Source: a virus. From it: DNA of 64,000 nucleotides. Location: positions 32,001-96,000 of the IMG/VR virus record IMGVR_UViG_3300045988_161245. One strand, given 5' to 3'. Positions 4,256-64,000 of this stretch are shown here, piece after piece; the stretch's first letter is position 1; the number at the start of each line of letters is the position of its first letter. Made by a program: the position numbers and the translations under genes. Under the pieces are notes generated by a model that was not told the origin of the DNA, made no database searches, and worked only from the letters and a program-made list of their open reading frames with translations.

Positions 4256-4933
4256 TTAGTCTTCCTCCAATGCTAATCTAAATTCTGAAGTTCTCATATC
4301 GGTTACATAATCAAAATACTGTTTGTTAGTAAGTTGCAATCTCTCTTGAATCTCATTTGGTTTATAACCATCAATCATCAGAGAAACTATTTTCTTTTGT
4401 GTTTTATTGAGTTTGTTAATACATGCTTCTAATTTTGATGCTTTTTTATTCGAAAAAATAATGTCTTCAACATCTTTTTCACATTGAATTGTGTCTGCAT
4501 ATGTAATATCTGAATCAGAGTCTATTTTGTCATAGATACTGACAGTTTTTACTCTCACGCTTTTTTTGACTTTTTCGCCATTTTCATCACGTTTTTCAGG
4601 GTCCCAATTTCCGTCACCACCACGCTTAAGAGAATTAATTCCATAAATATAGCTGATAAATTTCTTTTGCATATACGGATAAACATATGCTCTAAACGGT
4701 CCTGTAGTTGGATCATAAGACTCCAGGCAAAATGTGATAATATATCCTGCTAAAGATTCAAAATCATCTCTGTAATAATCTGGAATATCATTCCAAATTA
4801 TATGAAGTATCTGGTTGCAAAGTTTTTTAAGCTCCTTTCCTTTGTCTTTGTAGAAAAAGTCAACTATGTTATTGACCTCATCTTCTGTAAGTTTCTCATT
4901 CTTACTCCATTTCTCTGATCCCATAATTTTCAT
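4256..4933 (-). CDS. sigma-70 family (ECF/TcdR-like) phage sigma factor
   Basis: Region-2-like FRAYVYPYMQKKFISYIYG and C-terminal region-4 HTH LNKTQKKIVSLMIDGYKPNEIQERLQLTNKQYFDYV. Start taken at ATG 4933 rather than TTG 4945. Confidence 0.6.
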   Translation of the reverse strand: MKIMGSEKWSKNEKLTEDEVNNIVDFFYKDKGKELKKLCNQILHIIWNDIPDYYRDDFESLAGYIITFCLESYDPTTGPFRAYVYPYMQKKFISYIYGINSLKRGGDGNWDPEKRDENGEKVKKSVRVKTVSIYDKIDSDSDITYADTIQCEKDVEDIIFSNKKASKLEACINKLNKTQKKIVSLMIDGYKPNEIQERLQLTNKQYFDYVTDMRTSEFRLALEED

Positions 4934-4949
4934 TCTGCCACTCAAAATA

Positions 4950-5114
4950 TGAACAAAATATCCATATCGAGAATTGAAATCCTCACGGATATTTCTTACT
5001 GCTTCATTGTATATGCTTTCATGGTTATTTAACTCACTACTCGCAGATCCTTGTATACTCCACAGTCGTAAATTCCCGACTAAGCCATCGGTACATACTT
5101 ACTTTTGCTTTTAT
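4950..5114 (-). ncRNA. candidate TnpB guide-RNA (omega/reRNA) scaffold
   Basis: A 165-nt noncoding gap lies immediately 3' of the tnpB stop. It is GC-richer than its surroundings and has stems such as AGTCG...CGACT. TnpB omega RNAs are known to derive from the 3' end or right end of the element. Confidence 0.35.
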
Positions 5115-6287
5115 TTATGCAATTTCGTAAGCTATCGCATCTCTTAAATTAAGTGCTGCATTATAATCTCTATCAGCATAATATCCACATTCGCAAATAT
5201 ATTCTCTGTCAGAAAGTTTTAAATCTTTCTTAATACATCCACATTCGTGACATAATTTGCTTGATGGAAACCACCGATCCACAATTCTTAATTCGATTCC
5301 TAATTCTTTGCATTTTTCAATAAGCTTTAATCTGAACTCATAAAACTTCTGTGATGCAACTGCTTTAGAGAGATGTTTATTCTTCATCATTCCTTTTATA
5401 TTAAGATCTTCAATAGTTATATAAGATGGTTTGGTTTTCACTATCTCTGTTATTGTTTTATTAATATAATCGGTTCGAATATTAGTTATTCTTTGATAAA
5501 TTTTCTGTACCTTTAAAACTTGTTTTTGAATATTCTGTTTAGTAGCTGCTCCTTTATTGTTTTTGTTTCGTTGTTTATAACTTTCGTATTTTCTCGAAAG
5601 ACAACGTTGTTCTCTTTTTAATTTCTTTTTTAGCTTTTTAAATTTTTTTGTTTTATTAATATTTTTCTTTACAGTACCATCGCTTATTACTGCAAATTCC
5701 TTTATACCTAGATCAATTCCTAAACCAAAATCATTTAAAATAGCTTTATCTTGTTCTGGAACATCAACTAAAACAGAAATATAATATCTTTCTGCTTTCA
5801 TAGATATAGTTCCACTTTTAATTACTAATCCTGATTTAGTTGTTGGAATATAACCATTTTCTTTAAGCCTGACCCAACCTAATGTAGGAACTTTTATACG
5901 ATGCCTTTCACACCATATAACCGACTTACTATCGGTTTTTACAAAATACATTTTTACATCAGATTTGTTTTTCTTTTTAAATTTGGGGAATTTACTTTGA
6001 TTTTTGAAGAATCGTTTAAAAGATTTGTCTGCATTCATTATGCTTTGCTTGACAGATTTGGAGCTTACTTCTTTTATCCATAGATAATTAGGATTTTCTT
6101 TTAGGAATACATTATTTAACCATTTAGAAAAATCCATTCCTGAAACAAATATTTTTTCTTTTTTATACATCTCTATATTATGTGCAATATAGAAATTATA
6201 AATGTATCTACATGTCCCAATAGTTTTATTTATTATTTGTTTCTGCTCCAATGTCGGATTTATCTCCGTTTTGAAGCTTTTTAGCAT
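5115..6287 (-). CDS. tnpB: TnpB-like RNA-guided endonuclease
   Basis: 390 aa with [11 protein letters not shown] (RuvC-I D), YITIEDLNIKGM (E), CHECGCIKK...YICECGYYADRDYNAALN (Zn finger plus RuvC-III D). Confidence 0.9.
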   Translation of the reverse strand: MLKSFKTEINPTLEQKQIINKTIGTCRYIYNFYIAHNIEMYKKEKIFVSGMDFSKWLNNVFLKENPNYLWIKEVSSKSVKQSIMNADKSFKRFFKNQSKFPKFKKKNKSDVKMYFVKTDSKSVIWCERHRIKVPTLGWVRLKENGYIPTTKSGLVIKSGTISMKAERYYISVLVDVPEQDKAILNDFGLGIDLGIKEFAVISDGTVKKNINKTKKFKKLKKKLKREQRCLSRKYESYKQRNKNNKGAATKQNIQKQVLKVQKIYQRITNIRTDYINKTITEIVKTKPSYITIEDLNIKGMMKNKHLSKAVASQKFYEFRLKLIEKCKELGIELRIVDRWFPSSKLCHECGCIKKDLKLSDREYICECGYYADRDYNAALNLRDAIAYEIA

Positions 6288-6480
6288 TCACGTCCTCCTT
6301 ATTTTGATTTACACCTTTAAATTGCAAATAATGTTCATAAGTATAATATCTTCTATTAGTAGGAGTACGATTTGCTATTAAGATTCCTGCTCTATCCCAA
6401 CGCTGCAATGTTTTTACAGATACATTTAACAATTCAGCAAATTCTCTTGGTTTATAGTTAGTGATATTTTTTGTGTTCAT
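6226..6480 (-). CDS. MerR-type HTH protein, resembling only the N-terminal DNA-binding domain of IS607 TnpA
   Basis: REFAELLNVSVKTLQRWDRAGILIANRTPTNRRYYTYEHYLQF. The ORF ends after 84 aa inside the tnpB 5' end, with no resolvase domain. Confidence 0.6.
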   Translation of the reverse strand: MNTKNITNYKPREFAELLNVSVKTLQRWDRAGILIANRTPTNRRYYTYEHYLQFKGVNQNKEDVNAKKLQNGDKSDIGAETNNK

Positions 6481-8313: not shown

Positions 8314-8910
8314 TTAAAATAGTATTCTGTCTTTTTTATCAGAATACAGGTGATATTCAGGTTCATTATATATAAATGGGTCGCCATATTCATTATAAGA
8401 CACTAACGTTGCAAACCTAAATTTACTTTCATCTGGTGAGTATTTACGTTCCCAATCTATGGTTTCTACCTGTTCTTTAAATACCATTTTTTTATATAAT
8501 TCACTTTTAAGGGCAGCCATTATAAATTCATCATTGAAAATCACATTATTATTATGTTTATCCAAATATGTAAAATTCTTTTTTATTACAATAGGATGAA
8601 ACACATCATATATTATTTCATACACTTGATAAACAAATATATTATTTAGTGTATTTTTATAAAAATTTTCATATTCCTCAAATGTTCTGACAGGTTTTCC
8701 ACTCATGCACCACTTATGAAATTCATTAAATACTTTGTGAGCTTCACATTTCATTTTAAAAAGATAAATTTCATATTTATCTTCTGCCGGCAAAAGCCCA
8801 TCAACGACTGCTAATAAAATATTTTCTTTATCTTTCTCGGTTAACTTGTTCTTTTCAACTATGCATTTATCGTATATAGTCATCAGCTGTTCTAAGTATT
8901 CTGCTTTCAC
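8314..8910 (-). CDS. hypothetical protein
   Basis: 198 aa; GTG start is preceded by GGAGGT. Confidence 0.6.
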   Translation of the reverse strand: MKAEYLEQLMTIYDKCIVEKNKLTEKDKENILLAVVDGLLPAEDKYEIYLFKMKCEAHKVFNEFHKWCMSGKPVRTFEEYENFYKNTLNNIFVYQVYEIIYDVFHPIVIKKNFTYLDKHNNNVIFNDEFIMAALKSELYKKMVFKEQVETIDWERKYSPDESKFRFATLVSYNEYGDPFIYNEPEYHLYSDKKDRILF

Positions 8911-8978
8911 GAACTAATACCTCCGATTAAATATCTGTTTTATTAATCAATCTGCATCAATAATTTCTACCGTAGTTC

Positions 8979-9209
8979 TTAATATTTGCGATTTTTCTTG
9001 ATAATTCTAAAAAACAATGTATATATTTCTCCGTCCTCATCTTCTACTGAAATTTTTCGGTTTCTTAAAATTTCAGAAATGTTTCCAACGCCATTCCAAA
9101 TTTTACCAATAGGATATGTGTCTCCAATATGCATATCATGCCCTAACTGAATGCAATATGCATATTCTGCTAATATGCCAGATGTGTATTCATCATATAA
9201 TGTTCTCAT
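8979..9209 (-). CDS. hypothetical protein
   Basis: Track ORF trimmed to ATG 9209 (GGAGG upstream), so it no longer overlaps the gene at 9223-9447. Confidence 0.55.
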   Translation of the reverse strand: MRTLYDEYTSGILAEYAYCIQLGHDMHIGDTYPIGKIWNGVGNISEILRNRKISVEDEDGEIYTLFFRIIKKNRKY

Positions 9210-9222
9210 ATGTCGCCTCCGT

Positions 9223-9447
9223 TCAAAATATATATGTCGCAACCCATCTCTTCGCACTTGCAAGAGATTTACATTCCGCCAATTTTGTATTACAGTTCTT
9301 TCCACTGTATACTCCAAACTTCTCACCTTCATCGTCGATCCAAACGAATCTTCCATAATCCGGATGATTTATTTCAGCAGCCCATTGAGTTGGATTTCCG
9401 TTGTCATCGTCACACTCGTGAACTATGTTCCATTTTAATCTTGCCAT
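9223..9447 (-). CDS. hypothetical protein
   Basis: AAGGGAG SD precedes the ATG. Confidence 0.6.
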   Translation of the reverse strand: MARLKWNIVHECDDDNGNPTQWAAEINHPDYGRFVWIDDEGEKFGVYSGKNCNTKLAECKSLASAKRWVATYIF

Positions 9448-14790: not shown

Positions 14791-14983
14791 TATGTCACCT
14801 CTTTAAAACTCTCATTTTATGTCATTCAAAAACGTTAAGTCTAGATTTTTAATTTCTGCATTAAATCCATTTTCACATCTTTGTATTGAAACATTCTGTT
14901 CAATAGTTTCCCATAACTTTTTATTTTTGCGTATTGTTTCCTTTGATGGACGAAATATTGAGTTATATTCTATGTATATTGAG

Positions 14984-15445
14984 TTATTCATCTTTACCCC
15001 AGTAAGTCTTTACAAATCCCTGTTCTGGATCTCTATAACTTCTACCTTCACATTCTTCATAAGCTCTGTTATAGGATGCCGAAACAAGTTTTAATGGGAA
15101 TTTCAATTTATCAATATCTTTATCATCGCATCCAATACAAATTCCTTTACATCTATTTGATTGTTTACATGTATTTCCATATTTTATGATTTCTTCCATT
15201 GTTTTTGGATAATGCCCACATTCATACGAATAATCCATACCATCACAACCATTCCAATATGCCAGAATCCCATATAGATCTGCTTCATTTTCTGTCCCAT
15301 GAAAAACATGTCCATAATCATAGTATGTATCTTTGATAAATCCGCCACCAAATTCCTTTGGAATAAGTATCTTGTAGCGATCTCCTTTAGTGAGATTACT
15401 TCTCTTTGTAGTTCTATCTGCTCTTAACCAACTAAAGCTTCCCAT
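14984..15445 (-). CDS. hypothetical Cys-rich protein
   Basis: ATG 15445 follows a GGAGG SD. Confidence 0.6.
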   Translation of the reverse strand: MGSFSWLRADRTTKRSNLTKGDRYKILIPKEFGGGFIKDTYYDYGHVFHGTENEADLYGILAYWNGCDGMDYSYECGHYPKTMEEIIKYGNTCKQSNRCKGICIGCDDKDIDKLKFPLKLVSASYNRAYEECEGRSYRDPEQGFVKTYWGKDE

Positions 15446-31917: not shown

Positions 31918-32056
31918 TTACCTTACCTCCGTTTTTAATTCATCAGCGTATTATATGCTTCATCCAATGAGCAACTTAACCCAATCATTAACATCATACA
32001 TTCGTGGGCAGTTTCTTTAATATATCATGTTTTTTCTTCTGCGGTTAAATCTCTTT

Positions 32057-41347: not shown

Positions 41348-41446
41348 TTTTTCGAATCTAACTCAAAGTTAACTCAAATCTAACTTGAATTTAATTCAAA
41401 GTTAATTCAAAGTTAACTCGAATCTAACTTAAAATTACATTAAACT
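41348..41446. repeat. array of about 8-9 degenerate 11-bp tandem repeats (TAACTCAAAGT type)
   Basis: Units are TAACTCAAAGT, TAACTCAAATC, TAACTTGAATT, TAATTCAAAGT, TAATTCAAAGT, TAACTCGAATC, TAACTTAAAAT. TCGAATCTAACT recurs 65 bp apart. Confidence 0.85.
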
Positions 41447-41619
41447 AATATACTTCTCATTTCGCATTAAATTTAATTCCTAAGAATAAAATAAAATTCC
41501 ATTTAGAAGTCTATATTGATCCATCTATCTCACTTTCACTATCACTATTTTTAGATTAAATACAAATCTAAACAAGAAAAAAATAATATAGTATATATCA
41601 GTTAAGGAGAATTTTAAAT

Positions 41620-41967
41620 ATGAATAATAACGAAATTCAGAGATACGTATCTATCTTACTTGGCAAAGAAAATGTTGAAACAATATCAGATCTACAACTT
41701 TTGTTTAATCGCTATGACGTACATATCTCCAGACGTTTTGACGCAGTAGAAAATGGCGAACCTATGCTTTACCGTAGAGAAGATCTTACACAATGGGCAA
41801 AAGAAGCATTTGAACGTGGTGAAAAATATTTTTACTGTAAACCAGTTGATGAGAAAAATCCTTATGGACCATTAGTTCTTTGTAAACCAGAATACAAATA
41901 TAGGTTACTTCGTGCACTAACTGAAGAAGAATACAATAACGTTTTTTCAGAATATAAAGAAAAATAA
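41620..41967 (+). CDS. hypothetical protein
   Basis: TAAGGAGAA SD precedes the start. First gene of the rightward block. Confidence 0.65.
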   Translation: MNNNEIQRYVSILLGKENVETISDLQLLFNRYDVHISRRFDAVENGEPMLYRREDLTQWAKEAFERGEKYFYCKPVDEKNPYGPLVLCKPEYKYRLLRALTEEEYNNVFSEYKEK

Positions 41968-41998
41968 TTTAGAAGTAGATATTAAGGAGGAATTATTT

Positions 41999-44533: not shown

Positions 44534-47317
44534 GTGGTGATTATCATTAGTGAATTTGGAATTAAAATTAAAAATATCAGTGCTGGTACATTATATGATG
44601 TTAATTTAGGCACAAGAGATTATTTCTCATACACTGAAGCAATGCTTAATAATAGTTTATTTTCTGCTTTTCTTATAAAGAATGGTCTTAATGTATATAA
44701 AGGTGAATCTACTAGAGATATTATTTGCTTAGACTTTGACTTTGGTACAAGATCTTATGAGGATGAGCATAAACGAATTGAGCAGTTGTATAAAAATTCT
44801 GATGGCGAATTAAAGGAACGTCTTAAATACACTTTGGAGAAAGTTGAGAATAACAAGGATCTCTATGATGAGAAAAAGCGTGAGCAGATCAGAGATAAAT
44901 TCTACAACGAAGGTGTAGATGTTACTTATAAAACTAAGAATAAAGATGGCACTATTAAAAGTGAAGAAACAATTCACTATGAGATGTTGTTTCGAACCAG
45001 TGCTAAAGCAAAGCTTGGACAGGTTATCTTTATAAACTCTGAACTTTATGAAGTGGCTTACGAATGGTTAACTATCGGACTTGGAAAACTAATGACAGAT
45101 GACAATGCAAAAATTGTTGAGATGTCTGCCTATGCTCCACTTACTACATCTACCATCGTTGGAACTAAGTATATTCCTGTAGAGGATATTCTCATTCTTA
45201 GGGACCAAGATTCATTTTTTAAGACAATGGCTAACATTGTTCGTGCAGAAGATTACGTGGACTCTAAGGGTCGAATTTGTAAGAAATGTGTCGTAGACAA
45301 GAAGGTTACCGAAGTCAAGAATACACTTTGGGATGGCATGGGACTGATTGAAGCTGATTATTTTAAAGACTGCAGAAATGCTTATAATCCGGATTGGACT
45401 GTTAAGATTAATGGCATGGCTTTAATGAGACATCATTTATTTAAGATGTGTGGTTTTAAATCTCATATACAGTTATTTTTTAAGGATTGGTGTGAGAAAA
45501 CCGGTAATGATTATGAAACTTACCAGGTCCAAGACATGTTTGGTCATTGGCATTATTTGAAAGACATTAAGATTATCACTACTGACAACGCCATCAAATG
45601 GAAAAAATTTAAGGATTTAATGGGCGGCTCATTAGAATCTGCATATGAGTATTGGTGCAATAAGGTAAATGAAGATGGCAGCGTGTTCGGTATTGTAAAA
45701 ACCGATCATCCTAGTAAACTTGGTGAATATCAACAGCTCAGTTATCAGATGGTTAATACTCTCCCATGTACCAAAGATGATGTAAGGGATATTGCAAGCA
45801 CCAGTATTGAATATGTGGAGTTACTGAAGCAGGATAATAATGAGTTTGAGAAATTCTTAAGAAAAAATGCTAATGAGGTAAACCACTATGAGATGATGGC
45901 TGATTTATATGATCACAACCATGAATTTGGCAATAGTACATTTTTCAGACATGAGAAGTCAAAAATTATTTCCGCATATGTACATAAGCTTAGAAAAGGC
46001 AAGATTGTTGTGAACGGAGATAATTTAACTGTTTGTGGTAATCCATACGCTCTTCTACTCTATTCTGTTGGTGAGGATTTTACAAAAGATCCTACCCTTC
46101 AACCAGAATCTGGAACTATTCAATGTTATACAACAAGATTTAAACATGATGAATTTCTATGTGCATTTCGCAATCCGCATAATTCCCCAAATAATATTTG
46201 TTATTTTCACAATGTTTACAGTGATGAAATGGAAAAATACTTTGAATTTTCTTCAAATATTGCTGCAGTGAACTGTATTTGTACTGATGTACAACCACGT
46301 TTAAATGGTTGCGATTTTGACAGTGACTTCGTTTTAGCCACAAATCAGCCTACTATGGTAAGATGTGCAGCTTATTGCTATAAACACTACCCTACTATTG
46401 TTAATGATTTAAAAGAAAGTGGCGTGGTTTATAAAAGTAACAAATCAGAATATGCACGTATGGATAATACATTTTCTAAATCAAGAATCGGAATTGGATA
46501 TTCTAGTAATTTGGCACAGCTTGCCATGACTTATTACTGGAGTGAATTACAGGGTGATAGTCCAGATCCAAAAAGACTTGATGAGCTATCAGATAATTTC
46601 GTAATTCTAAGCGTTCTTGCTCAAGTAATAATCGATAGCTGTAAAAGACTCTATGAAATTGATGGAATTAAAGAGATTGATCGTATTAGCAAACTTCCAT
46701 GTATGACAATGAAAAAAGAAGTAATTGACAAAAATGGAAATAAAAGAATGAAAAAGTGTGACTTCCCTGAATTTATGAAATACACAAGAGAAATTGCTGT
46801 TACTAAGGATGGTAAAGAGCTTCCACAAGAAGATATTGAGGAATCCAAGAACAAATTAAAAGGACGAATCAATAAAGATCTTATATGCCCAATGAACTGG
46901 TTGCAGGAATGGTTGGATAAAATCCAGGGAGCAAGCACTAAGGTTACTACTCCTACTGAGAATTTCTTTATTAAGATGACAGGTGAAGGAAATTATAATC
47001 AAATGACCAAAATTATGACTACCATAGAAGAATATGATTCATATATAAAAAATATGCAATTATTATGTAGTGATAACGAAACATACTATGATTTAATTGC
47101 ACAAAAAGCGGCAGACATGGTGAAGGAAATTTCAAAAATGAAAATTAGAAATGTTGTCACTATTAATCGTCTTATTGAAATCAGTTTAGGAATAAGTACA
47201 GAAAAAGGTAGATCGAGTTATAGAAAAAGTAATCCACAAAAATATGCTAGAAAAACACTTAATCTTTTGTATAAATATAGCAAAGAAAAATTTTTAAATA
47301 ACTTTGTTTGCGAATAA
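44534..47317 (+). CDS. single-subunit two-barrel RNA polymerase, YonO / RdRP-like
   Basis: 927 aa. LNGCDFDSDFVLATNQ (DNA 46313-46327) matches the DxDxD metal site, cf. NADFDGD of beta-prime and DbDGD of cellular RdRPs. AFRNPHNSPNN upstream matches the R-x-P-x-x-H element. The start is probably downstream of the track GTG (see findings). Confidence 0.6.
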   Translation: MVIIISEFGIKIKNISAGTLYDVNLGTRDYFSYTEAMLNNSLFSAFLIKNGLNVYKGESTRDIICLDFDFGTRSYEDEHKRIEQLYKNSDGELKERLKYTLEKVENNKDLYDEKKREQIRDKFYNEGVDVTYKTKNKDGTIKSEETIHYEMLFRTSAKAKLGQVIFINSELYEVAYEWLTIGLGKLMTDDNAKIVEMSAYAPLTTSTIVGTKYIPVEDILILRDQDSFFKTMANIVRAEDYVDSKGRICKKCVVDKKVTEVKNTLWDGMGLIEADYFKDCRNAYNPDWTVKINGMALMRHHLFKMCGFKSHIQLFFKDWCEKTGNDYETYQVQDMFGHWHYLKDIKIITTDNAIKWKKFKDLMGGSLESAYEYWCNKVNEDGSVFGIVKTDHPSKLGEYQQLSYQMVNTLPCTKDDVRDIASTSIEYVELLKQDNNEFEKFLRKNANEVNHYEMMADLYDHNHEFGNSTFFRHEKSKIISAYVHKLRKGKIVVNGDNLTVCGNPYALLLYSVGEDFTKDPTLQPESGTIQCYTTRFKHDEFLCAFRNPHNSPNNICYFHNVYSDEMEKYFEFSSNIAAVNCICTDVQPRLNGCDFDSDFVLATNQPTMVRCAAYCYKHYPTIVNDLKESGVVYKSNKSEYARMDNTFSKSRIGIGYSSNLAQLAMTYYWSELQGDSPDPKRLDELSDNFVILSVLAQVIIDSCKRLYEIDGIKEIDRISKLPCMTMKKEVIDKNGNKRMKKCDFPEFMKYTREIAVTKDGKELPQEDIEESKNKLKGRINKDLICPMNWLQEWLDKIQGASTKVTTPTENFFIKMTGEGNYNQMTKIMTTIEEYDSYIKNMQLLCSDNETYYDLIAQKAADMVKEISKMKIRNVVTINRLIEISLGISTEKGRSSYRKSNPQKYARKTLNLLYKYSKEKFLNNFVCE

Positions 47318-47596: not shown

Positions 47597-47670
47597 CGCA
47601 GGATAGAGAAGTTTGGTATCTCGTCAGATTCATGCTCTGAAGATCGACAGTTCAAATCTGTCTCCTGCAA
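47597..47670 (+). tRNA. tRNA with anticodon CAT (Met / initiator-like / possible Ile2)
   Basis: Hand-folded 74-nt cloverleaf: acceptor CGCAGGA/TCCTGCA (C1-A72 mismatch), D stem GAGA/TCTC, anticodon arm TCAGA-TTCATGC-TCTGA, T arm GACAG-TTCAAAT-CTGTC. Confidence 0.8.
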
Positions 47671-51923: not shown

Positions 51924-52076
51924 TAAATATAAAATCGTTATTTTATGTGATGTGATTTGCCGTGAGGCAATTACTTTTTTCGCTCATTATTATAAAATTT
52001 TCTGAAGAGGTGATGGTTAGTGCTGTCATCTCACATAAGATAACGAAATATTTTGATAAAAGGAAGTGATGAAGAA

Positions 52077-53033
52077 ATGGCAGTTGAACGAAGTAAACCT
52101 ATATTATTATATGACGCAGAAAAAGCTAAACAGGTTAATCCGGAAACATTAAGATTGTTTCAAAAATATCAAATTGATATGTCAATTAGAGACCTATCAG
52201 AAAAGACAATTAGGGGTTATAATTCTGATTTAATGCAGTGGTTCATTTATATGTATAATAACCAATTTAATCTATCTGTTCTTGAAGCAAAAGAAGAAGA
52301 TCTTGAAGAATATTATTTCTGGAGAAAACAGCAAGGTAATAATGTTAATCGTCAGAAACGTGTCATGTCTTCTATTTCCGCTTTCTATAAATTTCTTCGT
52401 AAGAAAAAACTCATTACAGAATCCCCAATGGAATTTATTGATAGACCAAAACAAGGACAACCTGTTGTTGTACAAACTTATTTAAAAAAGGAAGAAGTGC
52501 AATTTATGAGAGAAAAACTTTCTGAATATGGTGATGTTCAGTTACAGGTTTATGCTTTTTTATCTCTCACTACAATGGCCAGAGTTAATGCAATTGCTCA
52601 TTTGAAATGGGATCAAATCAATATGGAAGAACGTATTTGCTCTGATGTGCTTGAAAAAGAAGGTAAAATTGTAGAGCTTTCATTTAGTGAAGAAACTCGC
52701 GATTATATGAATGAATTACGTAAATATAGAGAAGACAATAATATAGATGATTATGGTTGGGTGTTCAAAACGGCTTATACAAATGAGAAACAATGTGTAA
52801 GTAATGATACTCTAAATGAATGGTGTAAAAAAATTGGTAATATGATTGGGCATCCTACATTACATTGTCATGATTGGAGACATAGCTATGCTAGTCTGCT
52901 TAAGGAAAATGGGGCAAGTTTAGAAGATGTTTCAGAAATGCTTAATCATGCAGGAACTGATGTTACTAAGAAATATTACATAAAGGTAGATCATTCTAAG
53001 GTTAGAAAAATTAAGGATTCAATCAAAATTTAA
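52077..53033 (+). CDS. tyrosine recombinase (XerC/D-phage integrase family)
   Basis: N-terminal SAM-like core-binding region, ARVNAIAHLKWDQI (Arg box), HCHDWRHSYASLL...LNHAGTDVTKKYY (HxxR...Y). ATG 52077 follows AAGGAAGTGA. Confidence 0.85.
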   Translation: MAVERSKPILLYDAEKAKQVNPETLRLFQKYQIDMSIRDLSEKTIRGYNSDLMQWFIYMYNNQFNLSVLEAKEEDLEEYYFWRKQQGNNVNRQKRVMSSISAFYKFLRKKKLITESPMEFIDRPKQGQPVVVQTYLKKEEVQFMREKLSEYGDVQLQVYAFLSLTTMARVNAIAHLKWDQINMEERICSDVLEKEGKIVELSFSEETRDYMNELRKYREDNNIDDYGWVFKTAYTNEKQCVSNDTLNEWCKKIGNMIGHPTLHCHDWRHSYASLLKENGASLEDVSEMLNHAGTDVTKKYYIKVDHSKVRKIKDSIKI

Positions 53034-53342
53034 TTTAGAAGTACATAATAGAGAAGGTAACACTTTTGATATTGACCATCTTAGTTTATGGTCCAACATA
53101 ACATTTTTGAATTTCTGTGGAATAACAGAGTATTACGACTGTTATCTTCTCTTCTATTATATTTGTTCTGTGGTGGAACATTTTATTCCCAAGACGCTTG
53201 CGACATCAGGTAGGTAAGAAGAGGCTGAAAAGCGGGGATTTGTTCTGGAAGTCTGCACCAGTACCTGATAAACAATAAATGTAGTCTAAAAAACAAAGAG
53301 GCAGCTACAAAAGTAACTGCCCATTGCCGATGAGATAGTCTT

Positions 53343-53540
53343 TTATTGACAATCATCATCTAATACGCTTGCAAAGTTCACAGCAAATTCTGCGTTAACC
53401 TTATCGGCATTAACAGAGATTGTGAGGCTTTGCGGATTATTATTAAAAATCATCCACAGTGCAGCGATTATAATTATAGTAAAACAAAGAAGTCGGATCG
53501 CTAACTTTGCAAGCTTAAGCTTGTTGTGTTCCCTTCTCAT
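53343..53540 (-). CDS. small membrane protein on the opposite strand
   Basis: Strong AGGAAGGAGGTGAAAT SD. The TM segment is IRLLCFTIIIIAALWMIF. It has its own terminator hairpin, GGCAG...CTGCC plus T-run, near 53290-53325. Confidence 0.6.
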   Translation of the reverse strand: MRREHNKLKLAKLAIRLLCFTIIIIAALWMIFNNNPQSLTISVNADKVNAEFAVNFASVLDDDCQ

Positions 53541-53574
53541 ATTTCACCTCCTTCCTAGCTATAAAGTAGCTAAC

Positions 53575-54200
53575 TGGTTCAGAGGGGAATATGTGAGCAG
53601 AACGCCCAGAATCATATAGACTTCTGATGTGAATGCACCGATCCTTTCCGGTCTTATCTTAAATGCCAGGTGCTATGTCAATAAGTTACAGTGTATCGGA
53701 GTAGTTGAAGTACTCTTCTACACTTTCTATTATGATTCATGGGCGTTAAATAAACAAGCCGGAACTTATGTTTGTTGCCCAGAATAGAAATATTCTGTTA
53801 TGCAGATAAGGAGCGTCTGCCATCGGAGAATGACATAGTTGACAAGTGCCTCAAAGTTATTCGCGCGTAGCCGATGTAAAAGAATCCGTGATTCATCATA
53901 CAGTGTTAGGACTGGAACCTTCCGACTGAGCGGAAGCAAATAATACTCTTCCTGATTTAGTCAGGATAGCTGGCGGACAGCGAAGTAACTACGCAAACAG
54001 AGAGATCCTGCTTTAGTGGACGATTCAAAATTGATGATGAGGTGTGATTGCTAACTATATCACCTCGGTAAAATAAAGAAAAATTAGTGAAATGCGTCCT
54101 GTGACGGTTCTGACAGGAAGTTAAAATAAAAATTGACCGAGTGATGAAGGGTCGGAATGGAGACCTAAAACCCATTTGATTGCAGGAGTGTTATCCTGCT
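53575..54200 (+). ncRNA. candidate large structured ncRNA, segment A (ROOL/GOLLD-like context; unclassified)
   Basis: About 620 nt with no credible ORF, visibly GC-richer, with many perfect 6-bp hairpins (53919-53936, 53950-53966, 54097-54118, 54182-54199). Directly abuts tRNA genes. Confidence 0.35.
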
Positions 54201-54202
54201 AT

Positions 54203-54293
54203 GGCAGGTATAGCTTAATTGGTAAAGCGTCATATTCAAATTCTGGAAAACATACAAATGAAGACTCCAGGTTCGAGTCCTGGTGCACTGCCC
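54203..54293 (+). tRNA. aberrant tRNA-like element, about 90 nt (class-II length; anticodon uncertain, CAA most consistent)
   Basis: Clean D arm GCTT-AATTGGTA-AAGC and T arm CCAGG-TTCGAGT-CCTGG. The acceptor pairs only GGCAG/CTGCC, with extra or bulged bases. The anticodon stem TCATA/TCTGG has a mismatch. The variable region is 20 nt. Confidence 0.45.
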
Positions 54294-54329
54294 TACAACT
54301 CAATTTTTATTGAGTATAAAATTTTATTT

Positions 54330-54411
54330 GGATGGATAGCGAAGTGGTTAAACGCTCCTGACTGTAAATCAGGCGGCTCTGCCTTCGAAGGTTCGAATCC
54401 TTCTCCATCCA
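54330..54411 (+). tRNA. tRNA-Tyr (GTA)
   Basis: Acceptor GGATGGA/TCCATCC, anticodon arm CCTGA-CTGTAAA-TCAGG, 13-nt variable arm, T arm GAAGG-TTCGAAT-CCTTC. Confidence 0.85.
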
Positions 54412-54509
54412 CTAAATAGGACTACTGTCCTATTCTATTATTCTTCTCTTTTCTTTGTATTTTTCATTTTCATGATTATTTCTCCAAGCTGGGCTTCGGT
54501 CCAGCGTCT

Positions 54510-54583
54510 TGGGATGTAGCTCAGTTTGGTAGAGCGCCTGATTTGGGGTCAGGAGGTCCAGGGTTCAAGTCCCTGTATTCCAA
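54510..54583 (+). tRNA. tRNA-Pro (TGG)
   Basis: Acceptor TGGGATG/TATTCCA (two G-U pairs), D arm GCTC-AGTTTGGTA-GAGC, anticodon arm CCTGA-TTTGGGG-TCAGG with G37, T arm CAGGG-TTCAAGT-CCCTG. Confidence 0.8.
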
Positions 54584-54589
54584 CTTTCC

Positions 54590-57142: not shown

Positions 57143-58195
57143 ATGGCAAACTTGCGTCAAGCAAAAACAGATGCAGAGTTACGAACCATGACTATAACAA
57201 ATGTTAAAAAGGCGTATTCAAATTTGGCAGAAGATTATAATCGCCTTCTTGATTTAGAGTTTATATATTGTCCTCATTGTGGAAAGTGGAAATCTATAAA
57301 AGCAAGTAACTTTTATTCATCAAATGATACAGTTGATGGAATTGAGCATTTTGCATGTAAGGAATGTATACTTAACATGTGTACAGATAAAAATAAAGAT
57401 GGTTCGAGATCTGATAATAAAGAAAAAACAATAAATACTTTTAGAAAATTGGATTGGTGTTTTATCGAAGATGATTATGATAAGCAGTTAGTAAAAACTA
57501 CTGAAGCGGTAAATGAAAAAGTAAGAAGCACAGCCGCACAACAGCTTATTGTAATGGTTCAGTCACTTCCACAGTATAATGGAAAAAATTTTTCAAATAG
57601 TGAATTTAACGATTCTACAGATGGATCTTTATCTTATAAAAGAAAGCCACGAAAAGAAATTGTAAAACTATTTGGTTCAGGACTTTCAAATGAAGATTAT
57701 TTGTATCTTCAAGACCAATATGATGATTGGTGTGAAAGAACACAGGTGGATTCTAAATCTCAACAAACATATATTGTTAGAATTTGTTTTAAATTGTTGG
57801 ATATTTGGAAAGCACAGAAATCAAGTAAAGACACAACAAAACTTGATGAATCTTTAAATAAATTAATGGATGCAGCAAATTTACAACCAAGACAAAATGT
57901 TGGAAATGCTGCTACAGACGCTTTAACTTTTAGTCAGTTGATTGAAAAATGGGAACAGGAAAAACCAATACCTGAACCAGATCCAGAATTTAAGGATTGT
58001 GATGGTATAGGAAAATATATTCGCGTATGGTTTAAAGGTGCACTATCTCATGCTCTTGGCTTAGAAGGCGGTTATTCTAAAGAGTATGAAGATTATGTTA
58101 GTCAATATGCCGTAACTAAACCAGAAGAACAAGATCTTGATGAAAAATCTGAAAGTATTTATAGCCAAATTTTTGGTGATGAAAGTCAAAAGTAA
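57143..58195 (+). CDS. putative terminase small subunit (Zn-ribbon containing)
   Basis: Called by position immediately upstream of, and overlapping, terL. Contains CPHCGKW...CKEC. No family recognised. Confidence 0.4.
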   Translation: MANLRQAKTDAELRTMTITNVKKAYSNLAEDYNRLLDLEFIYCPHCGKWKSIKASNFYSSNDTVDGIEHFACKECILNMCTDKNKDGSRSDNKEKTINTFRKLDWCFIEDDYDKQLVKTTEAVNEKVRSTAAQQLIVMVQSLPQYNGKNFSNSEFNDSTDGSLSYKRKPRKEIVKLFGSGLSNEDYLYLQDQYDDWCERTQVDSKSQQTYIVRICFKLLDIWKAQKSSKDTTKLDESLNKLMDAANLQPRQNVGNAATDALTFSQLIEKWEQEKPIPEPDPEFKDCDGIGKYIRVWFKGALSHALGLEGGYSKEYEDYVSQYAVTKPEEQDLDEKSESIYSQIFGDESQK

Positions 58196-59967
58196 TGGCA
58201 AAACGATTAAAACAAAATCTATCTGATTCCCAAATAAAAAAAAATAAAACTGACAAAATAATGAATATTGTTGCAGAAAGAGCTTCGTATTATAGAGCTA
58301 ATCCACATAGGTTTGTGAAGGATTATCTTGGAATAGAATTAAAATTATTTCAAAAAATACTACTCTTCTGCATGATGCATAATGATGCCTTTTATTATAT
58401 TGCTTCGAGGGGCCAGGGCAAAACTTACTTGGTATCATTATTTTGCGTTGTAAGGTGTCTTTTGTACCCTGGTACAACTATTGTGGTAAGTAGTTATACT
58501 TTTAAACAGGGAAAAGAAACAATAATGAAGATAACGGATGATTTTATGAGAAAATCTCCGTTATTACGAAGTGAAATAGCTAAATACAGTATAGGACAAA
58601 ATGATTGTTCGGTATATTTTAAATCTGGTGGTTGGATACAGGTAAAAGTTGCTGCTGAGTCATCAAGAGGTGCCCATTGTCAGATATTAATCATTGATGA
58701 AAGTCGTATGGTTCAGCAAAAAATAATAGATACCGTATTAAAGCCAATGCTTTCAGCTCCACGTACTCCTCCGTATATAAACAAGCCGGAATATAAGGGC
58801 AAAGGTTATGAGGAAATGAATAAAATCCTTATGATGTCTTCTGCCTGGTATAAACAATCTGAGATGTATGAAATTGTAAAAGCTTATGTGGCAAATATGC
58901 TTGATCCAAAGATGAAATATTTCATTTGTGATTTACCATATACACTTTCAATTGCAGAGCATCTTCTTATGCGTCAATCGATAGAAAATGAAATGTCTGA
59001 AGCTACTTTTTCTGATATTTCATTTAAAATGGAACGAGAAGGTATTTTTTATGGAAGTGGTGACGAATCGCTTTTCAATTTTAATGTATTAAATACACGT
59101 AGAATTTTACAAGATAGTTTCCATGATTTAGATTTTTATAGAAATAGTAATGTAAGGATTCCACAAAAACAAGCTGGAGAAAAACGTATATTAAGTCTTG
59201 ATATTGCACTTCTTGCATCAAAAAAACACGATAATGATGCTTCTGCTTTTATTATTAACAGTGCCCTTCCTACATCCTCAAACGATTACATTAGTAATAT
59301 AAAGTATATAGAAACACAAGAAGGATTAATGACTGAAGAGCTTGGTCTTATGACTATGCGCTATTTTTATCAATATGATTGTGATTATATTGCGATTGAC
59401 GCAAATGGTGTTGGACAAGGTGTATTGGATTATTTAATGCAGGATAGATATGATCCTGTTTATAATATGACATATGGTGCCTTAAATTGTTGTAATAATG
59501 ATGATTTAGCAGACAGGTGCAAAGTTCGTAATGCTCCAAAGGTTATTTATGCAATAAAAGCAAGTGCAAAATCAAATAATGATATGTGTCTTGCTCTTCG
59601 TAGTGGTTTTCAGAATGGAAATATTAATCTTTTAAATTCTGAAACTGAGATTGATGAAAAATTACAAAAGCTTATAAAAGGTTTTAATAAGTTGTCTGAT
59701 ACACAAAAAATAAAGCTTCGTCTTCCATATTATCAAACAACATTCCTTATTGAAGAACTTATTAATCTTGATCATGAAGTAAATAATGGACTTATTAAAG
59801 TTAAAGAAAAATCAGGAATGCGGAAGGACCGTTATTCTTCACTTGAGTATAATTATTATGTTGTTCAGGAACTCGCACTTAAACTTAAGCCAAAGAATAC
59901 AAATATGAAAAACCTCGCTGACATCCTACCAATACGTACAGCGAAGCGTCATTCTTATTTCGATTAA
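58195..59967 (+). CDS. terL: terminase large subunit
   Basis: Walker A YIASRGQGKTYL and Walker B QILIIDESR. C-terminal acidic nuclease-like region LSLDIAL...YIAIDANGVG. Size and position fit. Confidence 0.85.
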   Translation: MAKRLKQNLSDSQIKKNKTDKIMNIVAERASYYRANPHRFVKDYLGIELKLFQKILLFCMMHNDAFYYIASRGQGKTYLVSLFCVVRCLLYPGTTIVVSSYTFKQGKETIMKITDDFMRKSPLLRSEIAKYSIGQNDCSVYFKSGGWIQVKVAAESSRGAHCQILIIDESRMVQQKIIDTVLKPMLSAPRTPPYINKPEYKGKGYEEMNKILMMSSAWYKQSEMYEIVKAYVANMLDPKMKYFICDLPYTLSIAEHLLMRQSIENEMSEATFSDISFKMEREGIFYGSGDESLFNFNVLNTRRILQDSFHDLDFYRNSNVRIPQKQAGEKRILSLDIALLASKKHDNDASAFIINSALPTSSNDYISNIKYIETQEGLMTEELGLMTMRYFYQYDCDYIAIDANGVGQGVLDYLMQDRYDPVYNMTYGALNCCNNDDLADRCKVRNAPKVIYAIKASAKSNNDMCLALRSGFQNGNINLLNSETEIDEKLQKLIKGFNKLSDTQKIKLRLPYYQTTFLIEELINLDHEVNNGLIKVKEKSGMRKDRYSSLEYNYYVVQELALKLKPKNTNMKNLADILPIRTAKRHSYFD

Positions 59968-60079: not shown

Positions 60080-61843
60080 ATGGGTAGACCCAAAGGTAGT
60101 AAAAATAAGCCAAAGGTGCAGGACGGTACACCTATTTCAAATAAAACCGTTAATACAGCTGCCTCAACTTCCACTTCGAAGTCAAAGGTAGCTCCTAAAA
60201 CAACTAAAACAGTCAATACAAAATCAACCACAACTAGAAATCAAACAAAGAAACTAGATAAAGTTGATAAATTACTGTTAAACAAATCAGCCACTGTTCC
60301 AACTATTGATACACCAAAAGGGAAGAAAACTGTAGCTGAAATGTCAACAACACTTACAAAGCATGAGCGTGTGCTTGAAATGGCAAAAACCACAAAAGCA
60401 ATGATAGATGCCTTGCAGCTTACCGATTTGTCTAAAACTGAATCGCGTACTTTCCAGACCTATTCCAGGGAAACACTTCGTACTTATATGAAATCACCAA
60501 AATCATACGAGTCTCAGTTAAGAAATTTAAGCCGGTATCTGTACAGACTTTGCTATGAGTACAGACGTATCTGTTTACACTATGCGACGATGATTTGTGG
60601 AGATGCATTTAATATTATCCCATTGGATGATCCTACGCAGGAAATGACTCCGGAGGAACGTACCAATACTTGGTATGAAACTATGATTCGTTGGCAACGT
60701 ATGGATTTTGCCAGCGAACTTGTAAAACTACTTCTTGTAGCTTGGCGTGAAGACTCTGTATACGCATATGTTTATGATGACTCTGATCAGGAAGGTGGAA
60801 CTTGTTTCTATCAGATTCTTGATGGAGATTATTGTAGAGTATCTTCTGTTGAAGCAGGTGTATTCAGATTTGCATTTGACTTTTCTTATTTCAGATCACA
60901 TGAAGCATATCTTGAATATTGGGATTCTGAATTTAAGTCTAAATATGAAGCATATCAGAAAGATTCTACATTAAGATGGCAGGAACTTGAACCTGAAAGA
61001 CAAGTTTGTTTTAAAGTAAATAGTGATGATCCGACTATGGATTACAGTCCACTAGCTAGTTTATTTCAGACGATCATAAATAATATTGATCTGTTAGAGA
61101 TTCAGGCAGTTAAGGATGAACTTAGCGCTTATAAACTTCTTGTAGCAAGATTAAAGCCATTAAGTGGAACTTCTGATCCTGACGATTTTGAAATTGATCC
61201 AGATACCGCATTAAAATATTATAACAAACTTGCAGCTAATGTTCCGCCATGTGTTAATGTTGTACTTTCTCCTATGGAAATTGATACAATTGAATTTAAA
61301 GATTTGAATAATACAGATGATACAGATATGGTTTCCAATTCAATATCTAATATTTTCAAGCATATTGGTGGTGTAATTCTTGACTCAGATAAATCTGGAA
61401 CAACAATTTATGAAGCACAGATTATTGCAGATATGAAATATGGTCAAAGTACATTATTACCTCAAGTGCAGAGATATCTAAATTTATATTTTAACTATGT
61501 TGTTGGAACTGGACATGGATACTTTAAGTATATAGATGGTGTTTGTCCTTACACAAAAAAAGCAAAACGTAAAGAACTTATTGAATCTGCCCAGAATGGA
61601 TTACCAAGAATGTCAGTTGGTGTCCTTGATGGAAATACACTTCTTGAGCAAATGTCTATGCTTAAGCTTGAGCGTGATTTAGGGCTTGTTGATTTGATGA
61701 GCAATCCACTTAGTACAAGTTATACGCAATCTGGTGATACTTCTACTACAGATACCGATCCTATTAATGGCGGTGCCCCAAGTAAAGATTCTGATGATCT
61801 AACCGACTCTGGTAGTAAATCCAAAGAACGTGGAAATGAGTGA
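60080..61843 (+). CDS. portal protein (probable)
   Basis: 587 aa, directly after terL, with a K/T-rich disordered N-terminus. Called on position and size only. Confidence 0.55.
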   Translation: MGRPKGSKNKPKVQDGTPISNKTVNTAASTSTSKSKVAPKTTKTVNTKSTTTRNQTKKLDKVDKLLLNKSATVPTIDTPKGKKTVAEMSTTLTKHERVLEMAKTTKAMIDALQLTDLSKTESRTFQTYSRETLRTYMKSPKSYESQLRNLSRYLYRLCYEYRRICLHYATMICGDAFNIIPLDDPTQEMTPEERTNTWYETMIRWQRMDFASELVKLLLVAWREDSVYAYVYDDSDQEGGTCFYQILDGDYCRVSSVEAGVFRFAFDFSYFRSHEAYLEYWDSEFKSKYEAYQKDSTLRWQELEPERQVCFKVNSDDPTMDYSPLASLFQTIINNIDLLEIQAVKDELSAYKLLVARLKPLSGTSDPDDFEIDPDTALKYYNKLAANVPPCVNVVLSPMEIDTIEFKDLNNTDDTDMVSNSISNIFKHIGGVILDSDKSGTTIYEAQIIADMKYGQSTLLPQVQRYLNLYFNYVVGTGHGYFKYIDGVCPYTKKAKRKELIESAQNGLPRMSVGVLDGNTLLEQMSMLKLERDLGLVDLMSNPLSTSYTQSGDTSTTDTDPINGGAPSKDSDDLTDSGSKSKERGNE

Positions 61844-62092: not shown

Positions 62093-63940
62093 ATGCGCAA
62101 TAAAACGCTACTTACTATTGATGATTTGGTCAAATTTTGCGAGGAACAGAAATTTGCAAAATTCAGTTCAAATGAAACAGGATATAAACTTGCAGTTAAA
62201 GTCCCTACTACTTTTGAATCGGAAGATTCTGTTGATGAAAATCATCGTGGTATGAAAAAAGTTAAAATTAAGATTTTCCATACTGGAGTAAATCGAAATA
62301 AATCTCGTGTTTCTAAAGAATCAGCAGAACGTGCAATGAAAACAATTCCAGACAGACCGGTACTCGCCGCTATTCATCAGCTTGACGATGGTTCGTGGGA
62401 TTTTGAAGGTCACGAAATGAAAACTGTTAGAAACGAAGAAACCGGTGAAGACGAAACAGTATATATCGAATCCCAAGTTGGATCATTTTCTTCTGAACCA
62501 GCATTTTGGGAACATGATGATAAATTAGATAAAGACTTTGTATGTGCTTATGCTTATATTGCTGAAGACTACACTCGCACCACTTCTATATTAGAAGAAA
62601 AAAACGGTACTAAAAATAGTTGTGAGCTTGTTATTGAGGAATTATCCTACGATGCAAAGGAAAAAGTTCTTGATTTAGATGATTTTTATTTAAATGCAAG
62701 CACCTTCTTGGGGTCTCGTGATGATGGTACTGAAATAGGAGAAGGAATGGAAGGTTCCAGAGCAGATATTGTTGATTTTAGTGAAGCACATAATTCAGTT
62801 TTGATTGATTTACAGACTAGACTTTCTAACGTTGAGTCTAAGTTAGAAAAGGTTTGTTTCAATAATAATACACAAATTAATCAGAAAGGAGGAAATGATC
62901 TGGTGAAATTTGAAGAATTACTTAAGAAATATAATGTAACAGCTGATGATATTACCTTTGATTATGAGGGGTTATCTGATGAAGAGCTGGAACAGAAATT
63001 TGCAGAAACATTTGATGATGACGGTGGCGCAGCTTCTGATGATGGAGCCGGTGATGCAGGTACAACTGATGGTAACTCTGATCCAGAACCTACTTCTGAT
63101 GAAAATGCAGACGAAGGCAATGGTGAATCTGATCATGTAGAAGAACCAGTAAATGAAGAGGGAGCTGGCGAAACTCAGGAAGAAAATCCGGTATCTGAAG
63201 AATCCGAAGATGAGCCTGTTGCAACATCCGATGATTCTAAAGAAAATCCAGTTGAGGAAGAGGCTTGTGGAGCAGATAATAAAAAGAAAAGGAAATACTC
63301 TATCACTACTGGTGAGAAATCTGCCAACTTCGAAGTTTCTCTCGATGAGAAAATTTGGGCACTATCTGATCTAGTAAATGCTCAGTATGGAGAGTCAGAT
63401 AACTGCTGGTACTCTGTAAAGGTTTATGAAAACTATCTTATTATGTATGATTATTGGACATGCATTGCTTATAAGCAGACATATTCTCAGGATGGAGATA
63501 ACTTCTCTCTCACCGGTGATCGTGTAGAAGTATATGCTACATATCTTACCAAAGAGGAATTAGATGAAGTTGAAGCGATGAGAAGCAATTATGCATCTCT
63601 TGTTGAATACAAAGAAAATGCAGAGTTTGCAAAACTTCATACACAGAGAGAAGAAATTCTTAATGCTGAGAAATACAACGATCTAAGAGATACAGATGAG
63701 TTCAAAGCTCTTGTTGAGAACATGGACCAGTACAGTCTTGTTGATCTTGAAAAAGAGGCAAAAGTTATTTTTGCTGACTTTATCACATCTAATGCAGGAA
63801 CTTTTTCTGCACACACTTCTGAAACAAAATCCAAAAAGAAATTTAATGGTGGAATGACATTTGGTGTTGGTTCTGAAAAACCAGAAGCTGATAATGAGAA
63901 TTCACCTTATGGAGATTATTTTAAATCTCTTAAAAAGTAA
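62093..63940 (+). CDS. head maturation protease and/or scaffold-like protein with long acidic linker
   Basis: AAAGGAGGTAA SD precedes the start. Called from its position after the portal gene. The central D/E/G-rich low-complexity region (DDDGGAASDDGAGDAG...EEPVNEEGAGETQEE) and coiled-coil C-terminus are typical of scaffolds. Confidence 0.35.
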   Translation: MRNKTLLTIDDLVKFCEEQKFAKFSSNETGYKLAVKVPTTFESEDSVDENHRGMKKVKIKIFHTGVNRNKSRVSKESAERAMKTIPDRPVLAAIHQLDDGSWDFEGHEMKTVRNEETGEDETVYIESQVGSFSSEPAFWEHDDKLDKDFVCAYAYIAEDYTRTTSILEEKNGTKNSCELVIEELSYDAKEKVLDLDDFYLNASTFLGSRDDGTEIGEGMEGSRADIVDFSEAHNSVLIDLQTRLSNVESKLEKVCFNNNTQINQKGGNDLVKFEELLKKYNVTADDITFDYEGLSDEELEQKFAETFDDDGGAASDDGAGDAGTTDGNSDPEPTSDENADEGNGESDHVEEPVNEEGAGETQEENPVSEESEDEPVATSDDSKENPVEEEACGADNKKKRKYSITTGEKSANFEVSLDEKIWALSDLVNAQYGESDNCWYSVKVYENYLIMYDYWTCIAYKQTYSQDGDNFSLTGDRVEVYATYLTKEELDEVEAMRSNYASLVEYKENAEFAKLHTQREEILNAEKYNDLRDTDEFKALVENMDQYSLVDLEKEAKVIFADFITSNAGTFSAHTSETKSKKKFNGGMTFGVGSEKPEADNENSPYGDYFKSLKK

Positions 63941-64000
63941 TTTAGAAGTAAATTATAACAACTGAATATAGAAAAAATTTTATAGTTGAACGAGGTATTT

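Follow-up and report, generated by a model that had tools for sequence, protein, structure and literature searches.

We analysed 64,000 nucleotides of viral DNA (IMG/VR record IMGVR_UViG_3300045988_161245, positions 32,001 to 96,000; this whole stretch is called the window, and its first letter is position 1), which comes from a gut Firmicutes phage. The subject is a rightward gene at 44534-47317, whose product is almost certainly a two-barrel RNA polymerase of the lineage of YonO, the single-chain enzyme of the Bacillus subtilis prophage SPbeta. An earlier note, made from the letters of the window, had proposed a single-chain polymerase here that resembles YonO and the cellular RNA-dependent RNA polymerases (RdRPs), and both a profile match to YonO and fold matches to the eukaryotic enzymes RDR2 and QDE-1 bear this out. 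The gene and its landmarks are as follows.

44534-47317, plus strand: gene for the YonO-type single-chain two-barrel RNA polymerase (open reading frame; PHROG 8308 match; YonO homology; RDR2/QDE-1 fold match)
44888-46843, plus strand: YonO-homologous core, polymerase residues ~119-770 against YonO 125-671 (hhalign)
45332-45445, plus strand: active-site residues of the beta-like barrel ("barrel B"), D267-G268 (LWDGMG) and R299 with K304 (MRHHLFK), placed by invariance, spacing and the YonO alignment
46169-46177, plus strand: R546-N-P548 (DNA cgc aat ccg), arginine and proline of the beta-prime-like barrel ("barrel A"), corresponding to QDE-1 R962/P964 (PMC2919709)
46313-46327, plus strand: D594-F-D596-S-D598 (DNA gat ttt gac agt gac), the Mg2+-binding catalytic triad in the variant form DxDSD
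46442-46549, plus strand: 36-residue helix, residues 637-672, directly past barrel A (DSSP on the AlphaFold2 model; contains N659)
46634-46645, plus strand: D701 and K704 (IIDSCKR), invariant family-wide (128 of 128 sequences, YonO included)

The open reading frame (ORF) encodes 927 residues and begins with a GTG codon 7 bases past the stop codon of a 99-residue ORF. Reading of the DNA placed DFDSD at 46313-46327 in a 927-residue frame, exactly as the note had it, with LNGCDFDSDFVL starting at residue 590. The element AFRNPHNSPNN, which had been put about 45 residues upstream, occupies residues 544-554, so that R546 lies 48 residues ahead of D594, and it holds the sole R-x-P of the protein. 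Taken alone these motifs are weak evidence: chance would give a protein with this amino-acid composition 0.33 copies of DxDxD, and translating the window in all six frames yields 12; it is only through conservation and homology that they amount to more than chance.

The protein belongs to a large family. PHROG 8308, labelled "unknown function", matches it at E 2e-84, a word-indexed search gave 2,465 homologue matches, and an exhaustive HMMER scan of 1.84 billion representatives matched 1,220 clusters (50% identity), of which 605 reached E ≤ 1e-30. An alignment of 52 sequences, 17-95% identical to the window polymerase, comprised three subfamilies: its own (65-95%), the group of a Mexican faecal phage contig (~26%) and the group of Enterocloster phage PMBT24 (~18%). 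Two further alignments, of 120 diverse sequences and of 128 sequences, both include YonO. When the 52-sequence profile was compared with SPbeta YonO using hhalign, the two were related with a probability of 99.6% (E 2.6e-24, 535 aligned columns), and the motifs of the window family paired with those of YonO as LWDGMG/HTDGCG, MRHHLFK/VRLPWVK, FRNPH/LRSPH and CDFDSD/FDNDGD. For the Pfam RdRP family (PF05183), against which the earlier note had proposed a profile check, the outcome favoured the proposal through the relatives: the window polymerase gave no match even at E 10 and does not reach the gathering threshold, whereas 7 of the 52 aligned homologues individually pass (best E 5e-11), and one relative, P0146, reaches 38 bits where the gathering score is 23.8. 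The gene is related to the Pfam RdRP family via intermediate sequences and fold, though it is not classed there by hidden Markov model. PDB sequence and profile searches gave no match between the window polymerase and multisubunit beta-prime/Rpb1. One database protein, P0362 (735 residues), is 98% identical to residues 1-331 of the polymerase and continues with unrelated sequence, which may reflect a rearrangement, a chimeric assembly or a further insertion into the gene.

Eight residues are common to all two-barrel polymerases (Ruprich-Robert and Thuriaux, PMC2919709). QDE-1 carries them as D709, R738, K743, R962, P964, D1007, D1009 and D1011, with D837, K979 and K987 of Rpb2 and R446/P448 of Rpb1 as counterparts (PMC2919709). 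The window polymerase has D267, R299, K304, R546, P548, D594, D596 and D598, and spacing together with the YonO alignment suggests that D267, R299 and K304 of barrel B are equivalent to QDE-1 D709, R738 and K743. The internal spacings R-x4-K, R-x-P and D-x-D-x-D are identical in the two proteins, and the distances between motifs are 32 residues in the window polymerase against 29 in QDE-1 from D to R, and 48 against 45 from R to the triad. All eight residues are invariant in the 52-sequence alignment (52/52), among them D594, D596 and D598, whose conservation in homologues the earlier note had chosen beforehand as a point at which its proposal could fail. Each of the eight was also found in 120 of the 120 diverse sequences, except D594 (119/120), and in the 128-sequence alignment seven are invariant and D594 is conserved at more than 90%. 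Other family-wide invariants in the latter are G268, K355, Q405, D701 and K704, and N659 is invariant among the 52. Two details of the motifs as first described need amending. In the presumed R-x-P-x-x-H element only the arginine and proline are invariant; the histidine follows R-x-P at an offset that varies between subfamilies, and the window reads R-N-P-H. The triad matches the universal DxDxD site, but its canonical glycine is absent from the window polymerase. Among the 120 diverse sequences, residue 597 is serine in 98, glycine in 10, threonine in 7 and alanine, leucine or valine in 5, and both YonO and PMBT24 have glycine.

An AlphaFold2 model built on the 52-sequence alignment had a mean pLDDT of 86.4 and a pTM of 0.81. 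Its beta-rich segments, ~210-310 and 490-603, hold the two motif sets, and the long helix at 637-672 is a possible counterpart of the bridge helix in this model. The structural comparison suggested at the outset gave a clear answer: a Foldseek search of the PDB returned maize or Arabidopsis RDR2 or Neurospora or Thielavia QDE-1 as all of its top 20 matches (probability 1.00, E 3.5e-12 to 3.6e-8, TM-score 0.38-0.48, ~750-1070 alignment columns), and these were the only significant neighbours. Beta-prime/Rpb1 came next in the list, with a fold match that is not significant (E 0.03-0.3, TM-score 0.07). QDE-1 (2J7N, 5FSW, 7Y7P-T) and plant RDR2 (7W82, 7RQS, 7EU1) share the barrel order and the eight residues with the window polymerase, whereas sequence identity is 9-12%, their setting is eukaryotic RNA silencing as opposed to a double-stranded DNA phage, and their DbDGD has glycine where the window has serine. 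Within a library of viral models, the best match was a phage protein named "RNA dependent RNA polymerase" (A0A8S5SZT9; TM-score 0.76, E 2e-45), followed by a protein of Bacillus phage 0305phi8-36 and then by fragments of crAss-like polymerases.

The polymerase gene sits in a plus-strand block that runs from ~41.6 kb, past a strand switch, and the genes that follow it were compared with SPbeta and with 80 related IMG/VR loci (contigs of ~7-250 kb, most >75 kb). Next 3' of a tRNA-Met come genes for a PhoH-like ATPase, a ClpP-like protease, a repair-type exonuclease, HU and a tyrosine recombinase. The placed features downstream of the polymerase are these.

47597-47670, plus strand: tRNA-Met (CAT), 280 nucleotides past the polymerase stop codon
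51601-51873, plus strand: gene for an HU-like DNA-binding protein, the yonN counterpart (Pfam PF00216, Bac_DNA_binding, E 7e-26; 48% identical to YonN)
52053-53033, plus strand: tyrosine recombinase gene between HU and the late genes (a recombinase occurs in 33 of the 80 related loci)
53183-54175, minus strand: four small leftward ORFs past the recombinase gene, ending at a terminator-like hairpin (53322-53299)
54204-54584, plus strand: tRNA-Tyr, tRNA-Pro and a weak tRNA-like match, between the recombinase and the late genes
57143-58195, plus strand: YonG-like gene (tblastn with YonG, 31% identical, E 4e-40)
58195-59967, plus strand: large terminase (TerL) gene (tblastn with YonF, 41% identical, E 4e-128)
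60080-61843, plus strand: portal gene (PHROG 2739, E 4e-80)

The SPbeta order is yonO, HU-like yonN directly downstream, then yonG, yonF and yonE, and the HU, YonG and YonF matches lie in the window in the same order and orientation. Phage PMBT24 has the order polymerase, HU, TerL, portal. That an HU gene lies nearby, and that SPbeta too has an HU-like gene beside yonO, had both been pointed out from the start and are correct; the linkage extends to the family, since an HU homologue is found within 10 kb of the polymerase gene, on the same strand, in 58 of the 80 loci. The 99-residue ORF upstream of the polymerase gene was considered as a general subunit and rejected, as it is present in only 11 of these loci. 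Relatives of the polymerase gene also occur in the isolate Ruminococcus sp. AM36-2AA, on a scaffold of 499 kb, and on uncultured, metagenome-assembled Ruminococcus and Clostridium contigs. At least the AM36-2AA relative is presumably a prophage, and the group is therefore likely to be temperate, like SPbeta.

Many close relatives are annotated as split polymerase genes, of 698 and 232 residues, and the 698-residue form alone accounts for 378 member sequences. Inspection of individual loci revealed group I introns. Locus L005 carries one of ~270 nucleotides at 6089-6359 (Rfam RF00028, 62.9 bits against a gathering score of 50, E 1.6e-15), inserted between codons A696 and Q697, four codons before the invariant D701 and equivalent to 46621/46622 of the window. 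The same insertion is present in L051, L052, L055 (9628-9897) and L067, and in L012 as a 1.3-kb version; RF00028 scores of the ~270-nucleotide introns were 62.9 and 59.7 bits. The L055 gene has a second insertion, of 950 nucleotides (8378-9327), exactly between D596 and S597 of the triad (window equivalent 46321/46322), with a 196-residue ORF (8483-9073) that shows NUMOD4/HNH-like motifs of homing endonucleases; the insertion matches the group I intron model below threshold (33.9 bits, E 1.7e-6). In the intron-bearing relatives exon 1 is 95-99% identical to the window and exon 2 only 75-82%; the window copy is intron-free. Group I introns typically target highly conserved sites of genes that the phage needs, and their positions at D596/S597 and A696/Q697 count in favour of a polymerase.

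The experimental precedent is YonO, a strictly DNA-dependent RNA polymerase that uses nucleoside triphosphates (NTPs) and is inactive as a 3D>3N mutant (PMC5467207). Deletion of yonO yields no infective phage and silences 37 late SPbeta genes, whose transcription begins at a single site upstream of yonK (PMC5467207). Because YonO acts in this way, and given the homology, fold, catalytic-residue conservation and synteny observed directly here, we consider the window protein to be, with good though lesser confidence than its lineage, a DNA-dependent transcriptase of late genes. Two double-psi beta-barrels in one chain would form its active site, with D267, R299 and K304 given by the N-terminal, beta-like barrel, and R546/P548 and the Mg2+-binding D594, D596 and D598 by the C-terminal, beta-prime-like barrel. 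By analogy with SPbeta, host RNA polymerase would read the early/middle operon (the plus-strand block from ~41.6 kb, which also includes the PhoH, ClpP, exonuclease and HU genes) and thereby make the enzyme, which would then act as a strictly DNA-dependent polymerase on the downstream packaging and structural late genes, from the YonG-like gene through TerL and portal to those beyond. Help may come from the linked HU-like protein. Catalytic activity, the preference for a DNA template, late-gene specificity, timing, promoters and cofactors, HU among them, are what we infer from these comparisons.

Several observations weigh against this interpretation. Direct searches gave no Pfam, NCBIfam or PDB sequence match for the window polymerase, and its BLASTP match to YonO is marginal (E 0.037, at very low identity), so that only profile-profile comparison works. 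Residues 1-118 and ~771-927 are unaligned with YonO, and specificity determinants may therefore differ. The canonical glycine of DxDGD is Ser597; since the 2010 survey does not count the glycine among its eight universal residues (PMC2919709), we treat the serine as a variant and not as an exclusion. Only the predicted fold connects the protein with solved structures, because PDB profile searches with the 52- and 128-sequence alignments and with P0146, like the sequence search, found no match; the TM-scores are moderate (~0.45), and the nearest neighbours among solved structures are enzymes that depend on RNA or accept both templates. No promoter for the polymerase was identified in searches of the window. 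Finally, it is possible that the putative sigma factor encoded at 4256-4945 directs late transcription instead.

That ORF lies on the minus strand and is plausibly, from its sequence, a divergent sigma factor. The earlier note had listed a sigma-like factor at 4256-4933; matches to sigma models do exist, and all are below threshold (TIGR02937 sigma70-ECF at E 1.3e-6, where 28 bits fall short of the cut-off of 42.9; the sigma factor family PHROG 1740 at E 1.5e-4; Sigma70_r4_2 of Pfam at E 0.0026). Phage PMBT24 is annotated with a SigK-like sigma factor too.

The scan for sigma-70-type promoters in the window was at chance level, with 85 sites against 90 expected. The 12-mer AATTTAGAAGTA occurs as three exact copies and one near copy, on the plus strand only and at gene boundaries of the rightward block only.

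41500-41511, plus strand: copy of AATTTAGAAGTA
41966-41977, plus strand: copy of AATTTAGAAGTA
53032-53043, plus strand: copy of AATTTAGAAGTA
63939-63950, plus strand: copy of AATTTAGAAGTA

The extended consensus around it is AAAAnnTAATTTAGAAGTAnATAwTA. One copy immediately follows the recombinase gene and precedes the tRNAs and late genes, and the element is also found upstream of the operon that holds the polymerase gene. Its 9-mer core is found 35 times on the plus strand and 4 times on the minus strand of the 80 related loci, its position is kept only in relatives of 88-99% identity, and in SPbeta it is not above chance. The 12-mer is a candidate phage promoter or processing site. We could not assign it as the promoter of the window polymerase, given its narrow conservation, its chance-level frequency in SPbeta and its presence upstream of the polymerase operon as well.

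A further reading, which we advance tentatively and think rather unlikely, is that the DxDSD clade of gut phages (~1,200 clusters at 50% identity) is functionally distinct from YonO, with short promoters specific to the phage, such as AATTTAGAAGTA. The HU-like protein could, for example, be a promoter-recognition or template-shaping factor, or template use could be relaxed between DNA and RNA as in QDE-1. If true, the clade would constitute an uncharacterised host-independent transcription system of abundant human-gut phages.

We also considered that the polymerase might be a virion component or an early product, and transcribe early or middle genes independently of the host polymerase, in the manner of crAss-like gp66 or N4-type enzymes. 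Crass-like single-chain two-barrel polymerases are virion proteins, crAss-like models match the window polymerase in structure (cr4_1, E 1.7e-4; a phi14:2 "structural protein", weakly, E 0.017), and the occurrence of AATTTAGAAGTA both upstream of the polymerase operon and before the late region would suit such a scheme. Against this, the similarity to YonO is far stronger than that to crAss gp66, the SPbeta synteny is kept, the polymerase gene is neither in nor beside a tail or virion module within the window, and the relatives in Ruminococcus and Clostridium genomes, which have integrases nearby, are presumably prophages. Temperate phages normally begin expression with the host polymerase. 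Such a role is unlikely.

Less probable again is a true RdRP that copies phage or host transcripts to double-stranded or antisense RNA, for regulation or counter-defence. Its attraction is that the nearest solved folds are cellular RdRPs, that relatives match the Pfam RdRP family and bear the public name "RNA dependent RNA polymerase", and that QDE-1 has both activities (PMC9508822). The public names, however, come from the Pfam label and not from experiment; YonO, alone among phage members in having been characterised, has a strong preference for DNA as template and drives transcription of late genes (PMC5467207); and a position at the head of packaging genes, in SPbeta-like synteny, fits a transcriptase of a double-stranded DNA genome. 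The database label "RNA-dependent" for these polymerases is probably a misnomer.

A catalytically dead or repurposed relic, or an enzyme making another polymer (a primase, or a DNA polymerase like archaeal PolD), is highly improbable: divergence from cellular polymerases is extreme, the metal loop has serine for glycine and the two-barrel superfamily includes archaea-specific DNA polymerases (PMC7824862), but the invariance of the catalytic residues across ~120 diverse homologues points to selection for catalysis, the best match among characterised relatives is an NTP-preferring RNA polymerase, and Ser597 accords with function, being the residue that most members of a very large clade carry.

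The closest known system is YonO (Forrest et al. 2017, PMC5467207). Both are single chains of similar size, as the note had remarked (839 residues in YonO, 927 in the window), in which the beta-like barrel precedes the beta-prime-like one, and they have all catalytic residues in common; both genes stand upstream of an HU-like gene and of the YonG and YonF (terminase) late genes, and relatives occur as large temperate Firmicutes phages or prophages. They differ in the metal loop, DNDGD in YonO and DFDSD in the window, and in the N-terminal ~118 and C-terminal ~157 residues of the window polymerase, which do not align. The loci differ as well, since in the window PhoH, ClpP, the exonuclease and tRNA-Met separate polymerase from HU, and HU is separated from the late genes by the tyrosine recombinase and more tRNAs. 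The PMBT24 polymerase, WDQ45559.1, is 25% identical to the window polymerase over residues 261-610 (BLASTP E 3e-24) and shares its synteny, but has the canonical DFDGD; the PMBT24 paper does not discuss the gene. Phi14:2 gp66 and the multisubunit beta/beta-prime enzymes share the two-barrel superfamily and the DxDxD metal site and are very different in size, domain content and subunit organisation, and crAss-like models as a group match more weakly (down to E 0.04).

The family itself is already known, and near-identical proteins are already annotated: DAX89442.1 ("MAG TPA: RNA dependent RNA polymerase [Caudoviricetes sp.]", NCBI nr) shares a 90%-identity cluster with the window polymerase, and more distant relatives with the same, computer-assigned public name come from uncultured gut Caudoviricetes (e.g. 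DAT99576.1 and A0A8S5SZT9). The kinship of YonO-like proteins from Firmicutes phages with RdRPs was noticed in 2003 by Iyer, Koonin and Aravind (as cited in PMC2919709), and the proteins were surveyed in 2010 (PMC2919709), characterised in 2017 (PMC5467207) and mentioned for jumbo phages in 2021 (PMC7824862). Some mild novelty lies in the prevalence of DxDSD, in how large the family is in gut metagenomes, in its consistent linkage to HU and in the introns. YonO-type polymerases, known experimentally from one Bacillus prophage, are thus widely distributed among the phages and prophages that gut Clostridia carry. The YonO work left open by what means a minimal two-barrel polymerase locates its promoters. 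For this question a compact, probably sigma-independent, HU-linked polymerase with serine for glycine offers a second model; practical value is modest.

Further features of the window surround this locus. Just upstream of the rightward operon, at 41351-41449, are about nine tandem 11-bp units with the consensus TTCAAAGTTAA, within a 3-kb ORF-poor strand-switch region (38.6-41.6 kb); G+C is higher at 36-40 kb than in the rest of the window. This iteron-like array could be a replication origin or a regulatory array. Downstream, where the polymerase operon gives way to the late genes, the recombinase gene and the leftward ORFs beside it may form a cassette for lysogeny or of moron type. With a T4-like phage tRNA-Pro the tRNA-Pro segment shares 94% identity, and it was the only close DNA match of the window in the phage collection. 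Searches of the ORF-poor regions 53.0-55.4 kb and 35.7-41.7 kb for an RNA like the SPbeta late-leader noncoding RNA or GOLLD gave no Rfam match. Locus L074, whose polymerase is 54% identical, has a GOLLD RNA (RF02032) at 14953-15426 (152.8 bits, gathering score 150), which lies 1.9 kb past the polymerase gene and is followed by a tRNA cluster; it recalls the unannotated noncoding RNA of SPbeta at the start of YonO transcription. At the other end of the window lies a TnpB and guide-RNA-type element inside the phage, made up of two features.

5115-6287, minus strand: TnpB gene of the IS605 family (OrfB_IS605 and Cas12f1-like TNB domains)
4996-5066, minus strand: RAGATH-18 RNA directly downstream of the TnpB gene (64.8 bits against a gathering score of 44.9)

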